A stretch of DNA of 64,000 bases from Myxococcota bacterium (lineage in GTDB: Bacteria > Myxococcota_A > UBA796 > UBA2385). Below are positions 35,499 to 42,889 of this stretch, piece by piece. The notes beneath the pieces were generated by a model. The model did no database searches. It was given only the letters and a program-made list of their open reading frames with translations, and was not told the DNA's origin. The translations under genes were made by a program, and so were the position numbers. Numbering within the stretch: the stretch's first letter is position 1; every line of letters begins with the position of its first letter. The stretch is taken from NCBI GenBank assembly GCA_044344255.1, contig JBIJDH010000010.1, positions 64,001-128,000 on the forward strand, read 5' to 3'.

Positions 35499-37814
<2,316 letters not shown>

Positions 37815-38176: not shown

Positions 38177-39226
38177 TCAGGGCGCGTCCGCGGGGCAGAG
38201 GGAGGCCACGTCGAGGTGGGTCTCCGAGCCCCACCCGGCCTCCACGGTGTCGGCCACGAGGGCGCCAGAGAAGGCGCCGAGCAGCCGCACCTGCCCGTCC
38301 GGCGCGTAGACGAGGGCGTTGATGAGCGAGCCGTCGTTGAGGCTGACCGTGCCGCCGCCGATCAGGTAGACGCGGAGCTGCTCGGGCGCGCCGCCGGGGT
38401 TCATCGAGGCGCCCCAGCTCAGCGTGAGGTCACCGGTGACATAGAGCTCGAGCGAGAGGCCGCTCGGGATCTCGAGGGCGCCGCCCTCGTTGGCGAAGTC
38501 GGTCACGAGCAGGCGGCTGTCGGCGGTGAGCGCGGCGGTGGAGCCGTAGCCGATACGCAGGCTGTCGAATTGGGCGTCCCCATCGAAGTCGTGGTGCTCC
38601 TCCCAGCCGAGGTAGAGGTCACCCGAGGAGGCGGGGAGGTCGGTGGGCGCGGCCACGGTCGGGAGGGTGGCGGGGGCCGGGAGCTGCACCACCCCGCCGC
38701 TGACCGATACCCCCCAGACCTCACAGTAGGCGGTGGCAGGGTCCAGGCCGACATAGACGGTGCCGCTCACCGTCGCCCCGTTGCTGAGCGCGCACTCCCC
38801 GGACCCGTTCACGGCGAGGGTGGCGTCGCTGCCGATGTTGCCGCCGCCGTAGTCCCCGATCGCGGCGTCGTAGCTGTCGAAGGCGGCCCCGTACGCGAGG
38901 GTGGCCGAGCTGCCCGCGATGAGGCCGTATTCGAAACAAAAGGCGGGGTCGTCGGGGGGATCCCCCCCGGTGTCGCCGGTGTCGGCGCCGCCGTCCGCCC
39001 CGTCCGCCCCGTCTGTGCCGTCGGTCCCGTCTGCGCCGTCGGCCCCATCGGTCCCGTCGGTCCCGTCGGTCCCGTCGGTCCCGTCGGTCCCGTCGGTGTC
39101 GATACCGCCGTCGCCTCCCCCTGCGATGTCCTCCCCGGCGCTACCCTCGATCGACGCCTTGGAGGCCCCGCAGGCGGAGAGGCCGAGCAGGAGGGGGAGG
39201 AGACAGGAGAGGTGCGGGGCTCTCAT
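38177..39226 (-). CDS. Lipoprotein with (DGT/DGA)n linker and C-terminal beta-solenoid adhesin-like domain
   Basis: Lipobox LSACG; 9-bp repeats at about 38990-39100; FDSYD, LYVTGD and ALVYAP..FSGALVA..HLD pattern typical of beta-helix domains. Confidence 0.7.
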   Translation of the reverse strand: MRAPHLSCLLPLLLGLSACGASKASIEGSAGEDIAGGGDGGIDTDGTDGTDGTDGTDGTDGADGADGTDGTDGADGADGGADTGDTGGDPPDDPAFCFEYGLIAGSSATLAYGAAFDSYDAAIGDYGGGNIGSDATLAVNGSGECALSNGATVSGTVYVGLDPATAYCEVWGVSVSGGVVQLPAPATLPTVAAPTDLPASSGDLYLGWEEHHDFDGDAQFDSLRIGYGSTAALTADSRLLVTDFANEGGALEIPSGLSLELYVTGDLTLSWGASMNPGGAPEQLRVYLIGGGTVSLNDGSLINALVYAPDGQVRLLGAFSGALVADTVEAGWGSETHLDVASLCPADAP

Positions 39227-39275: not shown

Positions 39276-40472
39276 TCAGGCCCAGGCCACGAGCAAGAAG
39301 GTGGCGGCGGCCCCGAAGGCCAGCGCCGGCACCGCCCCGCAGAGGAACCAGTAGAGCTGCTCCTGGACGTACTTCCCGAACCAGCGCTCCACCAGCTTGT
39401 ACTGGAACATCCCGATGTTGATGACCATCGCGATCGCCAGCGCCGCGTAGTTGAGCGCGAAGAGGCGGGTGACCGTGTTGTCACCCGAGGCCAGCGAGGA
39501 GTACTCGGAGTTCACCGTGAAGTTGAGGGCGATGACCGCGAAGAGCCCGCCGATGACGATGTTGGCGAGCTCGAAGGCGTCCACCTCGAAGTCTCCCTCG
39601 TCGCTCACCTTTTGGAGCCAGATGGCGATCATCGGGATGAGGAGCGACGAGAAGAGCGGGATGAACAGCGTGGGGACCACGCTCATCCACAGCCGCTGGG
39701 CGTTCAGGCTGGCGATCACGCGGGCGTGCTCGCGCTCGTGCCACCCGAGGAGGGGGGCCGCGCTCAGATCGACGGTGCCGACGCTCCAGCCCCCGAGGGA
39801 GACGCCCTCCTGGGCGTGGCTGAAGGCGACGTCTTCTCCATGAAACTCGAGGCCGACCTCCTCGGTGGAGGCCTCGCGGACCACGACGGCCACCTCGAGG
39901 GCCTGCCGGTCGAAGGGGAAGCTCTGCTCGTCCAGCGTGGTCGCGAAGGTGCCGCGGGTGCGCTCGAGGAGCTCGATCTGGCCACCCTTGGTGACGAAGA
40001 GGCCCCGCTCTCGAAAGGCGGGATCGCCGACGAGGTTGTCGATCTCGACCCGCGGCGCGCCGAGCTCGGCGAGGGCCGCCTCTACCGCTTCGCCGTGGCG
40101 CTCCATCGGGGGCGCGCCGCGCCGCGTCCAGACGAGGCGGGTGTCAACCGTGGCGTCGAAGGTCTGCTCATTCTCGTCGATCCCGTCGAGCGCCACAAAC
40201 TGAACACCGACTCGAACCGGCAAGGCCTGCCCGTTCGCGCCGAGGGCGCCCGCAGGGGGCGGCGCCACCCGCGCGGCGACCGGGGCGACCGGGGCGACCT
40301 CCGGAGGCGCCGCCTCCGCCTCGACCAGCGGGGCCGCGATCTGGGCCGCCTTCGCTCCCTTCGCGGCCTTCGCCCCCTTCGCCCCCTTGGCGGCGTCCGC
40401 CCCCGGGCCGAGGGCGAAGAGGCAGACGAGGCCGATCGGGACCAGGGCGGCGAGGCGCCAGGCCCGCCTCAC
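39276..40472 (-). CDS. Prokaryotic pentameric ligand-gated ion channel (GLIC/ELIC-like Pro-loop receptor)
   Basis: Signal peptide; VRVGVQF..IDENEQTFDA..LVW; Pro-loop FPFDRQ; four C-terminal TM helices with Pro in M1. Confidence 0.8.
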   Translation of the reverse strand: MRRAWRLAALVPIGLVCLFALGPGADAAKGAKGAKAAKGAKAAQIAAPLVEAEAAPPEVAPVAPVAARVAPPPAGALGANGQALPVRVGVQFVALDGIDENEQTFDATVDTRLVWTRRGAPPMERHGEAVEAALAELGAPRVEIDNLVGDPAFRERGLFVTKGGQIELLERTRGTFATTLDEQSFPFDRQALEVAVVVREASTEEVGLEFHGEDVAFSHAQEGVSLGGWSVGTVDLSAAPLLGWHEREHARVIASLNAQRLWMSVVPTLFIPLFSSLLIPMIAIWLQKVSDEGDFEVDAFELANIVIGGLFAVIALNFTVNSEYSSLASGDNTVTRLFALNYAALAIAMVINIGMFQYKLVERWFGKYVQEQLYWFLCGAVPALAFGAAATFLLVAWA

Positions 40473-41590
40473 TTCTCACCGCCCGGCTCGCGGAGCGCCT
40501 CATACGCGCGGCCCATCTGCTGGAGCTCCTCGGGGAGTCCGGCGCTGTCGAAGGGCTGGCTGCGGTCGCCGCCGGCCAGGGCCTCGAGCCGCCGGGCGAG
40601 GAGCTCGGCCGGGCGGGTGAGCAGCCCCCGCACGCTGACGAGGATGACGCCCGCGCAGAGCACGGAGCCCACGAGCACCATGAAGCCCTGCCAGACCACC
40701 ATCCGGGAGGCGGTGGCCCGCGAGCTCGTGAAGTCACCCGAGACGGCGAACATGCCGATGGTGGTGCCCGCGTGGTCCTTCACGGGGAGGAGCACCACGC
40801 CGTAGGGCACGCCGAAGGCCTCGCGGACATAGTCCTGGCTCGCCGTGCTCGCGAGGTCGCGGTCGCTCACCAGGGCGGCCATCCGCTCGCGGTGGGTGGT
40901 GTAGAAGCGCACGTAGGGGCCCACCCGGTTGGCCTCGGTGAGCACGTCGCCGGCGAGGTGGGTCGAGATCTCGCGCAGCAGCGCCTCGTTGAAGAAGATG
41001 GCCGCGTCGAGGCCATAGGCCGACTTGATGCCGTCGATGATCGGGCCGTAGTCGAGGCCGAACTCGATGGTGCCGAGGTGGGCGCCCTCGCTGTCGGTGA
41101 TCGGGGCCACACCCACGATCGAGGCGCCGGAGCGGGAGATCGAGACGCCCTTGATCGGCTGGCGTCGCTCGTTGGCCTCGACGATCATCGGCCGGTAGGC
41201 GCTGAGGTCCTCGCCGATGCCGTCCTTCGGAGAGTGGAGGCGCAAGAACATGGTGGCGGGGGGCACGGCGATGGCGGCCTGGCGCACGCCGAAGCGCTCT
41301 TTCTGCACGCGGAAGGAGTCGCCCACGTCGGCGTAGAGCGCCTCGCGGTCGCCGCTCTTCATGGCCCGCCGCACGCCCTCGAGGCGGGCGTAGATCTCCG
41401 CGTCGGCCAGCGCCTTGTCCTCGGCGTCGGCGAGGGTCTTGGTGGCGACGGAGCGCATGAGGCCGAGGCGGTCGGCCTCGGTCTGGGCGATGAGGCCCGA
41501 GAAGAGGCGCTGCGTGGCCACCGCCGTCAGCACGAGGACGAGGACCACCGCCGCGATCGACACGGTCGGTGCGCTCTTCTTGAAGGTCAT
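40469..41590 (-). CDS. Membrane sensor: TM - dCache_3-like domain - TM - HAMP, with no output domain
   Basis: FLRLHSP..GEDLS.YRPMIVEAN, GVAPI, GTIEFG; second TM then RPAELLARRLEALAGGD..EELQQMGRAY and stop. Confidence 0.8.
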   Translation of the reverse strand: MTFKKSAPTVSIAAVVLVLVLTAVATQRLFSGLIAQTEADRLGLMRSVATKTLADAEDKALADAEIYARLEGVRRAMKSGDREALYADVGDSFRVQKERFGVRQAAIAVPPATMFLRLHSPKDGIGEDLSAYRPMIVEANERRQPIKGVSISRSGASIVGVAPITDSEGAHLGTIEFGLDYGPIIDGIKSAYGLDAAIFFNEALLREISTHLAGDVLTEANRVGPYVRFYTTHRERMAALVSDRDLASTASQDYVREAFGVPYGVVLLPVKDHAGTTIGMFAVSGDFTSSRATASRMVVWQGFMVLVGSVLCAGVILVSVRGLLTRPAELLARRLEALAGGDRSQPFDSAGLPEELQQMGRAYEALREPGGEK

Positions 41591-41773
41591 CCCACTCCCG
41601 AGGGCCGCGCGTGATCCGGGGCACCGCGGCAGCTATCCAACCCGGCCGGGGCGGGCCTCTCAGACCAGGACATGACTCAAGGCAGGCCTTGGGCCCTCGA
41701 CAGCGGGCCGACCGCGCGTTTGGGGTCGAGATCGCCCTGCCCGCACCGCCGGGCTCGGTTAGCCGCCGACCCC

Positions 41774-42889
41774 ATGGACGTTGACGCCTTCTCGAATGAG
41801 CTCCAGGCCCTCGGCGCGGCCCTGCGCAAGCAGAGCCCGGAGCGCGACGTGGCCCACCTTCGGCGGGTCTCCGCCGTCGGTCGGCTGTTCACCCTGATCG
41901 GCTGGGCCACGGCCTGGATCGCGCCCAACCCGGTGTCGATGCTCGGGCTGTCGCTCGGCCGCTTCGCGCGCTGGGTGATGATCGCCCACCACGTCGCCCA
42001 CCGCGGCTACGACCGGGTGGGCGGGCCGCTGGGCAAGCCCTTCGGGGAGGGCTGGCGGCGCTACATCGACTGGTTCGACTGGATCTACCCCGCGGCCTGG
42101 AAGCACGAGCACAACACGCTCCACCACTACCGCTTGAACGAGGCGCGCGACCCCGACCTCGTCGAAGAGAACCTCCAGTGGCTCCGCGACAGCAGCGCCC
42201 CGCGCTTCGTGAAGTACATCGTCACCGTCGTGGCCGCGCTGACCTGGAAGTGGGTCTACTACGCCCCCAACACCCTCGGTGAGCTGCACCGCATCGACGA
42301 CAATCGCGAGGGGCTCGACCGCAACGTCCGCACCTGGAATCCCCTCAAGCCGGCCGGGCGAGACCTCTACTTGAAGAGCCTCTTCCCGTACCTCCTGCTC
42401 AATTTCGTGGTCCCCACGGCGCTCGGCTACCTCATCTCCCCCTGGGCGGCCCTCTCGGTGCTGATCAACAGCGTCGTCGGCGAGCTCCTCACGAGCGTGC
42501 ACACCTTCGCGGTGATCGTGCCCAACCACGCCGGTCGCGACCTCTATCGGTTCACCGATCCCCCCCAGGGCAAGGCGGACTTCTTCCTCCGCCAGGTGCT
42601 GGGCTCGGTGAACTTCCGCACCGGCGGGCAGGTCAACGACTTCCTGCACGGCTACTTGAACTACCAGATCGAGCACCACCTCTGGCCCGATATGCCGATG
42701 ATGGCCTACGCCCGCGCCGCGCCGCAGGTCAAGGCGCTCTGCCAACGGTACGGTGTCCCCTATGTCCAAGAGTCTGTCTTCGCTCGGATCTGGAAGACCG
42801 TCCGGATCTACTCGGGTGAAGACTCGATGAAGGTGGCGAGCAGCGGCCTCTCCTGGGCGCAGGCCGACACGACCCCTCAGCGGGCGTAG
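41774..42889 (+). CDS. Membrane fatty acid desaturase
   Basis: His boxes HHVAH, HNTLHH and QIEHHLWP. Confidence 0.9.

Follow-up and report, generated by a model that had tools for sequence, protein, structure and literature searches.

The closest described system to the gene pair reported here is a predicted operon of Rhodopseudomonas in which a stand-alone Cache gene accompanies an ART-LGIC gene (Tasneem et al., Genome Biol 2005, PMC549065), and the idea of such a pairing is therefore already in print for one bacterium. As in our pair, a separate Cache gene lies beside a pentameric ligand-gated ion channel (pLGIC) of simple architecture, and functional cooperation is proposed. The two sentences given to that operon, which concern a single bacterium and a hand-over model, describe no family, no transmembrane (TM) or HAMP segments and no gene overlap; the comparison is one of descriptions, and no named Rhodopseudomonas record was among the matches of our sequence searches. 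Prokaryotic pLGICs fused to MCP-N/Cache or PBP domains, described in the same paper, also combine a Cache-type sensor with a pLGIC but carry it within the channel chain, five per pentamer (PMC549065), whereas our pair has a dCache_3 sensor with two TMs of its own. Likewise, the N-terminal domain of DeCLIC is fused to the channel, while the sensor here is a separate membrane-anchored chain. We found no description in the literature of an auxiliary subunit for GLIC, ELIC, sTeLIC or DeCLIC. Table 1 of a 2016 census contains neither dCache_3 domains with ion channels nor a dCache_3 structure (PMC4822843), and our literature search for dCache_3 ligands found none.

Af1503-like archaeal receptors show the same TM-sensor-TM-HAMP-stop layout and lie near membrane transport genes, but have small STAC proteins and solute carriers as coupled partners (PMC4834066); in our system no such third gene was found among ORFs of at least 90 aa, and HAMP can be lost. 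The alpha2-delta protein of animal voltage-gated calcium channels is a separate, Cache-bearing channel subunit, a parallel drawn in PMC549065, yet it combines dCache_1 with VWA and belongs to another channel superfamily, making the likeness an analogy and not a homology of the system. CitA/DcuS carboxylate sensors and dCache_3 chemoreceptors and kinases share with our sensor the fold of the distal module, a candidate Arg/His pocket motif and an SFLRxH-type segment. The spacing in our sensor is Arg-x-His, compared with Arg66/His69 (Arg-x-x-His) in CitA (PMC5595915), and the core clade of our sensor family, unlike CitA/DcuS, has lost the second Arg and has no kinase or MCP output.

An output-less sensor gene overlaps a pLGIC gene

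The window analysed is a stretch of 64,000 nucleotides from a Myxococcota bacterium, and all features discussed lie on its minus strand. The sensor gene (40469..41590, ATG start) encodes 373 aa. Its layout had been given in a preliminary description as TM-dCache_3-TM-HAMP-stop, which the open reading frame, the profile matches and two hydrophobic spans (residues 7-25 and 302-320, hydropathy) bear out. TM1 (residues 7-27, 41510..41572; hydropathy and AF2 model) follows a basic N-terminus that suggests an N-in topology. The periplasmic double Cache region (residues about 48-287, 40730..41449), delimited by profile match, fold comparison and alignment, is a double PDC module between the two TMs and scores 69.1 bits with the Pfam dCache_3 profile (PF14827, cut-off 25.7). 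TM2 (residues about 296-321, 40628..40705; hydropathy and alignment) contains the clade-conserved residues W300, Q301, G314 and R321 and leads into a divergent terminal HAMP (residues 322-368, 40487..40627) with 17.9 bits, below the Pfam cut-off of 25. The family profile matches the Af1503 HAMP structures (E 4e-8), the best PDB match of this HAMP, and the AF2 model finishes in two helices; a phmmer search of the PDB with the sensor gave no match. HAMP is the sole cytosolic part of the protein, and a cytoplasmic output domain (HK, MCP, GGDEF, cyclase) is absent.

The channel gene (39276..40472, GTG start) encodes 398 aa, and its overlap with the sensor stop is exactly as first described, with GTGA read at minus-strand positions 40469..40472. 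The junction is also spanned by contigs from runs X8, X15 and X16, none of them flagged as potentially the origin of this DNA, and no difference is listed there, which argues against an assembly error. In other strains (runs X8 and X15) the channel linker is 60 nt shorter, in frame (joint 40299-40363). No sigma-70-like promoter was found at the locus, one terminator-like site within the channel gene is at chance level, and one metatranscriptome yielded two 151-nt pieces, both within the sensor gene. The genome, 95% complete, encodes a second, paralogous pair (38% and 41% identical); it contains two dCache_3 matches in all, both channel-linked, and neither an MCP signalling domain nor a full-length dCache_3 receptor was detected in it.

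The channel has pLGIC fold and motifs

Identity of the second protein as a GLIC/ELIC-like, Pro-loop channel was confirmed by sequence (GLIC, E 8e-13, phmmer) and fold (GLIC, E 1e-19, Foldseek). Profile scores are low, with 15 bits for Pfam Neur_chan_LBD, below its cut-off, and 37 bits for NCBIfam LGIC_1, far below its cut-off of 500; among the profile searches that had been proposed at the outset, dCache_3 lies over its cut-off and HAMP and Neur_chan_LBD under theirs. A predicted signal peptide (residues 1 to about 27, 40392..40472; hydropathy) is followed by an Ala/Pro/Lys-rich low-complexity linker (40242..40391, pLDDT <65), the extracellular beta-sandwich (residues 78-260, 39693..40241) and M1-M4 (residues 261-398, 39279..39692). 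The AF2 model (pLDDT 88.5) has the beta-sandwich domain followed by four TM helices, and hydropathy gives one N-terminal (7-25) and four C-terminal spans. The extracellular domain carries an FPFD Pro-loop, pre-M1 R260, loop C G243-W244 and loop D D110; the membrane domain carries M1 P272, E301 (-1'), N304 (2'), F311 (9'), F318 (16'), M4 P382 and a lengthened, acidic M1-M2 loop. The [F/Y]PxD Pro-loop, pre-M1 Arg and M1 Pro, which we take to be marks of pLGICs, are represented by P186 (67/67 channel rows), D188 (65/67), R260 (67/67) and P272 (67/67).

The channel is about 16-20% identical to GLIC, ELIC, sTeLIC and DeCLIC and shares with them the fold, the Pro-loop, the pre-M1 Arg and the M1 and M4 prolines, with TM-scores of 0.72-0.82, depending on the target, to the single-domain GLIC, ELIC and sTeLIC. 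It differs from all four in having Phe at position 9', lacking Arg at 0' and showing a weak M2-M3 Pro and, in the core clade, the long acidic M1-M2 loop. The frequency of the M2-M3 Pro is 41% in core rows, 85% in distant linked rows and 97% in other pLGICs; the window's copy has Ser instead. M4 Trp379 was rejected as a mark of the clade, being present in 71% of other pLGICs. The window's channel also departs from otherwise fixed sites, with Gly for W138 of the WxP motif before loop A (Trp in 66/67 rows), Phe for R159 and a short deletion; these deviations recur in other assemblies and relatives.

Aromatic and acidic agonist-site residues (W244, Y/H249 and D110) are kept in the channel, suggesting that it may bind an agonist of its own, and the whole linked clade retains a loop C Trp and Tyr/Phe/His as well as an acidic residue in loop D. 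Loop C aromatics are described as lining the agonist site of ELIC (PMC3119659).

The pair is conserved from both sides

Conservation of the pairing had been set beforehand as one of the tests, and it holds in both directions. The channel gene is next in 122 of 134 close sensor loci, the remaining 12 ending within 300 nt. Across three genome samples, a sensor lies upstream of 15/15 channel matches of at least 160 bits, 10 of them new and found independently of the sensor, and upstream of 0/43 weaker pLGIC loci. A sample of 401 genomes has a sensor beside 12/12 clade channels, and the whole output-less sensors among its 78 matches are exactly these 12 channel-adjacent ones. The -4 overlap is present in 104 of 119 scored loci and in 86 of 95 pairs, compared with about 30 expected. 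Screening ORFs of at least 90 aa across 55 loci of at least 6 kb brought up no recurrent third gene, and one channel query gave no plasmid match. In a quick tree, 46 linked channels are separated from 35 others by a branch with SH-aLRT 99; this tree used 33 of 65 core channels, with rows <230 aa dropped, 11 loci left out (three seed duplicates, eight weak or partial) and long branches flagged, including P0213. Distances among paired sensors and channels mirror each other (r 0.80; shuffle maximum 0.17), which indicates co-inheritance only, not contact. Inter-protein covariation over 67 paired rows (effective number 38) gave no signal, top inter- and intra-protein scores being alike.

Sensors of the family are uniform in length (367-401 aa, median 376, 67 rows) at 30-59% identity, and loci with a core pair include ones from Mesorhizobium and Bosea. 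The stop falls within 30 residues of HAMP in 127 of 129 close, uncut sensors, so the window's sensor is not truncated relative to its homologues, and the JGI label 'methyl-accepting chemotaxis protein' was rejected, no MCP domain being present. Because a channel follows in nearly all close loci and the others end too early, the output-less sensor is a family and not a truncation. Distant relatives often carry an output (48 of 76 representatives <190 bits have tails >100 aa), and HAMP is missing from 8 of the 12 linked sensors that are distant.

One protein of 790 aa, P0213, unites sensor and channel; as a single sequence on one contig that retains a signal-peptide-like linker, it may represent a lost stop or an assembly error. 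Longer fused channels were sought between 808 and 2305 aa, a range that does not include the 790-aa size, with one weak unrelated match as the outcome. P0151 and P0176, seen as proteins only, have extra N-terminal helical sensor-like modules ahead of the same unit.

The distal Cache module retains a remodelled candidate pocket

The distal module has the CitA fold (2j80: Z 18.4, rmsd 2.0, 129 aligned) and is the most conserved region of the sensor. R117, R133 and E176 are invariant in 67/67 core rows and 10/10 distant linked rows, as in output-bearing receptors, and H119 is kept in 67% of core rows. Two pocket residues kept in output-bearing relatives are altered in the core clade, where E150 remains in only 24% and R159 is replaced by Phe in 70%. 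This second Arg of the RGK motif, placed by a weak CitA alignment (E 1.3), is present in 10/10 distant linked rows. The window's sensor lacks four further pocket residues (positions 106, 107, 108 and 114), and these losses together make ligand binding by this copy uncertain.

Core-clade sensors retain the HAMP motifs G322, P327 and E355, and their proximal Cache module has clade-specific N221-R222-x-G224 and R256. At matched distal-module identity (40-55%), the proximal module and TM2 are each 42% identical in core sensors, compared with 24% and 17% in output-bearing relatives, a contrast of one clade with mixed relatives that could reflect shared history. This unusual conservation of the proximal module and TM2, and the loss of HAMP in distant linked sensors, are new here.

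A proposed accessory sensory subunit

Because an output-less sensor precedes and overlaps the channel gene in many unrelated bacteria, we give about an even chance to the reading that the two genes form a fixed unit in which the sensor is a dedicated accessory subunit beside the pentamer, relaying a small-molecule signal to the gate. Translational coupling would yield matched amounts of both proteins. Other Cache-HAMP receptors are dimers, as the sensor probably is too, and its docking surface would be TM2 and the Cache module nearest the membrane. A small ligand, for which the CitA-like distal module with its Arg117/His119/Arg133 pocket makes an anion the probable candidate, would shift the long helix and TM2, and this movement would open the pore or alter gating. 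Glu at -1' and the absence of Arg at 0' predict a cation-conducting pore in the core clade, with Phe9' and Phe16' forming a tight gate. HAMP was rejected as a required output in view of its absence from most distant linked sensors and is likely left over from an ancestral chemoreceptor or kinase, or else helps in dimerisation. This absence and the conservation of proximal module and TM2 make it likely that coupling is periplasmic or within the membrane, not through HAMP. Gating of the channel in trans, as the preliminary description proposed, is on these sequences a candidate mechanism. In its strongest form, which we advance tentatively and hold to be somewhat less probable than not, a captured dCache_3 receptor head that lost its output would gate the whole channel clade (at least five phyla) obligately in trans, which would make it the first auxiliary sensory subunit among prokaryotic pLGICs; it would act sideways through the proximal module and TM2, and a sensor swap would change the pore-opening chemical.

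Much of the same evidence would be expected if the sensor bound the channel for assembly, stability or constitutive tuning, like alpha2-delta, with the pocket mattering little for gating. Linkage, overlap and the heightened conservation seen in TM2 and the proximal module suit that role too, and it is favoured by a pocket that is remodelled in the core clade, more so in the window's copy, and by the channel's own candidate agonist site; the invariance of R117, R133 and E176, the distal module's place as the most conserved region and the added sensor-like modules of P0151 and P0176 point the other way, and we regard this role as unlikely but credible. Capture and concentration of a ligand that is passed to the channel's agonist site without allosteric coupling, the model of Tasneem et al. 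2005 (PMC549065), accords with the loop C and loop D residues kept across the linked clade and with the aromatic agonist site of ELIC. However, the Arg-rich sensor pocket would suit an anion and the aromatic/acidic channel site a cation, and ligand transfer does not need a conserved TM2, leaving hand-over quite improbable.

The sensor could also be merely co-expressed with the channel, making no contact with it; HAMP would relay the signal to a cytoplasmic partner encoded elsewhere, or the sensor would heterodimerise with a full-length receptor. Af1503-like receptors, which end in HAMP, lie close to genes for transport and have a small STAC protein coupled to them (PMC4834066), offer a precedent, and the core-clade HAMP keeps its motifs; against this, HAMP is missing from most distant linked sensors, the loci screened share no recurrent third gene and the genome yielded neither an MCP domain nor a full-length receptor, and we consider such signalling very unlikely. 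Decay of a former chemoreceptor or kinase, or a broken fusion, with an incidental neighbourhood in either case, might be read from the outputs of distant relatives, the deviations of the window's channel and the fused P0213. Uniform length at 30-59% identity, two-way linkage, the conserved overlap and the recurrence of those deviations elsewhere contradict it. The channel had been described as having its own signal peptide and the pair as not looking like a broken fusion, and the sequences agree with this: beside the predicted signal, a basic-then-hydrophobic start is found in 67/67 channel rows under a loose rule. Decay or breakage is largely refuted for the family and seems exceedingly improbable.

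Implications for bacterial pLGICs

To our knowledge, few bacterial pLGICs have a known natural signal or role, and the pair provides a direct route to both. If the accessory-subunit reading is right and the sensor acts laterally to gate or tune the pentamer, Cys-loop-type channels would have a new mode of opening, one with a bacterial parallel to the Cache-bearing alpha2-delta subunits, and orphan channels that are silent when expressed alone would find an explanation. In that case the pair could also yield the first ligand for dCache_3 and a modular ligand-to-current device.

The sensor and channel genes of the window are intact and overlapping

By ORF reading, the sensor gene (40469-41590, - strand; 373 aa) and the channel gene (39276-40472, - strand; 398 aa) share the four nucleotides GTGA at the end of the former and the start of the latter. 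The window sequence thus bears out the coordinates and overlap of a TM-dCache_3-TM-HAMP-stop sensor running into the GTG of a GLIC-like channel, as given in the preliminary description. By domain, the sensor matches dCache_3 at 69.1 bits in a profile search and shows two hydrophobic spans by hydropathy, HAMP gives a weak match of 17.9 bits that falls below the profile cut-off, and the channel ORF scores below Pfam and NCBIfam cut-offs while matching GLIC at E 8e-13 by sequence and E 1e-19 by fold. In the AF2 model of the sensor (pLDDT 94.1, built on 67 rows), a long helix at the N-terminus precedes two PDC modules, TM2 and a final pair of helices; CitA is the best structural match of the distal module (Z 18.4, rmsd 2.0, 129 residues).

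Contigs of three runs that carry no mark as a potential origin of this DNA cover the sensor-channel junction with no difference listed there; in two of the three, the channel linker is 60 nt shorter, in frame. The window's DNA is contained in lake and river metagenomes, the GC content of the pair resembles that of its surroundings, and the RNA evidence comprises two short pieces. Ordinary genes flank it: a divergent fatty acid desaturase (41672-42889, + strand), separated from the start of the sensor by 81 nt when the longest ORF is taken, and a monomeric isocitrate dehydrogenase assigned by domain match (35499-37733, - strand). A lipoprotein-like ORF with Gly-Thr-Asp repeats (38177-39226, - strand) lies 49 nt downstream of the channel, and a similar repeat protein is found near a second pair of the same genome (contig C36, L001 3795-4544); in a neighbour count over 55 loci of at least 6 kb, this ORF is not a conserved neighbour elsewhere.

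The sensor belongs to a family of output-less proteins

The sensor represents a family and not a truncation. All 11 other matches in the first protein search were 370-382 aa long. Two scans yielded 151 loci, near-duplicates included (at a 90% identity limit, 65 of the 95 complete pairs remain), with 134 at 300 bits or more and 17 distant. Among the 134 close sensors, 127 end within 30 residues past HAMP, five run into the end of a contig and two look frameshifted, so the stop after HAMP seen in the preliminary description is genuine. The 17 distant loci comprise 10 with long tails and no channel seen (at least 300 nt downstream being present in nine of these), four that are cut and three that are fragmented with a channel. 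When 149 cluster representatives were classed from protein alone, those at 190 bits or above included 45 output-less, 26 partial and two long proteins, and those below 190 bits 12, 16 and 48, respectively. By record titles, carriers fall into Myxococcota, Pseudomonadota (alpha, beta, gamma and Magnetococcales), Verrucomicrobiota, Acidobacteriota and Planctomycetota; single MAGs labelled Bacteroidetes and Clostridia also carry sensor loci.

Several representatives depart from the common architecture. P0199 and P0215 are output-less dCache_3-HAMP proteins with a conserved but different C-terminal end and may belong to another output-less family with another partner. P0151, P0176 and P0156 have either one or two additional helical modules at the N-terminus, resembling 4HB sensor domains as judged by eye, or a second copy of the entire unit in tandem.

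Sensor and channel form a strongly conserved two-gene unit

The two-gene unit is real and its pairing, taken in the preliminary description from a single locus, is conserved from both sides. The channel is the next gene at 122 of the 134 close loci; at the remaining 12, the sequence stops no more than 300 nt past the sensor. A channel-profile search covered three samples of 401 genomes, drawn from the orders of the Mesorhizobium and Polaromonas loci and from the window's phylum (where a stricter first look makes the counts a floor). A sensor lies directly upstream of 15/15 channel matches at 160 bits or more; five of these are seeds or from the window's own genome and 10 are new, forming a distant subclade. 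Upstream of weaker pLGIC loci, the count is 0/43 (L167-L213; several partial, two with less than 400 nt upstream). Many of these loci encode uncharacterised pLGICs of other clades. A broad sensor profile, scoring at most four candidates per genome, gave 78 matches in the Mesorhizobium-order sample: 12 channel neighbours, 64 open frames of at least 611 aa (with tails of about 300 aa in the 18 checked), one cut and one broken MCP. The order of the Methylobacter locus (201 genomes) gave 20 matches, three of them to complete short sensors that are each accompanied by the channel, and one weak short match ended 44 nt from a contig end. One branch of a quick tree splits 46 linked channels from 35 others (SH-aLRT 99).

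The gene overlap is likewise conserved across the family. Of 119 scored loci, 104 have the nearest in-frame channel start at -4 and 10 have it at -1. Because picking the nearest start biases this count, a random-frame control was added: 86 of 95 complete pairs lie at -4 compared with about 30 expected. The channel's own putative signal peptide, as previously described, agrees with a basic-then-hydrophobic start in 67/67 rows under a loose rule. No third gene recurs among the 55 loci of at least 6 kb, the commonest neighbours being generic kinases (nine loci) and ABC ATPases (seven) at varying positions. No close sensor was found in 40 relatives of the window's genome; this patchy spread, combined with the second pair in that genome, suggests transfer as a cassette.

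Conserved features of the sensor and channel

HAMP is dispensable for pairing, since eight of 12 distant linked sensors (L160-L163, L165, L166, L245 and L246) stop a few residues past TM2. These still overlap or adjoin the channel start, L161 with a -4 ATG in another frame, and the L246 sensor is a whole 337-aa protein in its NCBI record. The distal pocket is retained in altered form. R117, R133 and E176 do not vary across the core clade, the distant linked group and the output-bearing relatives; the distant linked group also retains E150 and R159, which have disappeared jointly from most core sensors. Position 159 aligns weakly (E 1.3) with the Arg of the CitA RGK motif. Arg66 and His69 are described as binding citrate in CitA (PMC5595915), and the ligand site of dCache domains as mostly in the distal module (PMC11804620). 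Given these parallels and the kept pocket residues, our guess is an anionic sensor ligand.

The channel family retains the Pro-loop, pre-M1 Arg and M1/M4 prolines. Aligned to other pLGIC rows, and in the prime numbering we assume to apply, the core pore carries Glu at -1' (97%), Leu 0', Asn 2' and Phe at 9' and 16'. Glu(-1') is associated with cation selectivity. A Gly-Trp in loop C occurs in both linked subclades (Trp 100% and 92%), as do another aromatic residue of that loop and an acidic one in loop D, a set absent from the 35 other channels. From motif spacing, we take these loops to fall on the ELIC agonist site. That site is described as lined by aromatic residues of loop C and a Tyr of loop D (PMC3119659), and this parallel, together with the loop conservation, indicates that the channel may have retained its own binding site, either for a cationic agonist or for a partner side chain. 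P0213 (790 aa; sensor 3-368, channel 456-785) unites sensor and channel in a single chain; it has a signal-peptide-like linker and is a singleton on a 5.9 kb contig. A separate protein, P0297 (819 aa), bears pLGIC transmembrane and SBP_bac_5 (PF00496) marks, a possible binding-protein-channel fusion.

The window's pair is a deviant member with a paralogue in its genome

Four otherwise near-fixed residues of the pocket region (106, 107, 108 and 114) are missing from the window's sensor. In the window's channel, Trp138 is replaced by Gly and Arg159 by Phe, and a short deletion follows Trp115. As close relatives (P0004-P0007, P0015 and P0020) share part of these deviations, the pair represents a diverged subclade in which the ligand may differ or function may be reduced. 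The paralogous second pair (contig C36, L001 6380-8673) has an ATGA overlap and shares 38% and 41% identity with that of the window. A whole-genome search of this 95% complete genome found no MCP signalling domain, and only the two channel-linked sensors match dCache_3, leaving no obvious receptor as heterodimer partner and agreeing poorly with a simple chemotaxis function for the sensor. The genome has three flagellin N-terminal matches and no detected chemotaxis receptor.

A putative accessory subunit of a pentameric channel

Tasneem et al. 2005 (PMC549065) describe, in the text available, a stand-alone Cache gene with a pLGIC in a predicted operon, in Rhodopseudomonas only, and suggest cooperation. 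A term search of the accessible text of Jaiteh et al. 2016 (PMC4795631) returned no mention of operon, neighbourhood, periplasmic, auxiliary or Cache. The accessible part of the 2016 Cache census (PMC4822843) bases its models on output-bearing proteins and does not list dCache_3 with ion channels. Af1503 is described as an output-less HAMP receptor near transport genes (PMC4834066). DeCLIC, as described, carries a fused domain on the channel chain whereas the window's sensor is a separate protein. The literature searched, mostly outside subscription journals, yielded no description of the sensor-channel family.

In matched pairs with 40-55% distal-module identity, the proximal module and TM2 are each 42% identical among core sensors, compared with 24% and 17% among output-bearing relatives, and clade-specific residues in this region include E202, N221-R222-x-G224, R256, W300, Q301 and R321. 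This constraint fits a partner-binding surface and could also reflect shared history; sensor-channel covariation was uninformative. We consider it probable that the sensor is an accessory subunit physically contacting the channel, a claim that spans two roles for the contact. The sensor would bind a ligand and then gate the channel in trans, or its contact would serve assembly, stability or constitutive tuning. Ligand-driven gating in trans, for which we infer binding, stoichiometry, ligand and gating, is the best single mechanism, though we regard the case for it as evenly balanced. The pair extends the known sensor-plus-pLGIC theme as a variant, and the two pairs of this genome constitute a natural test of partner specificity.
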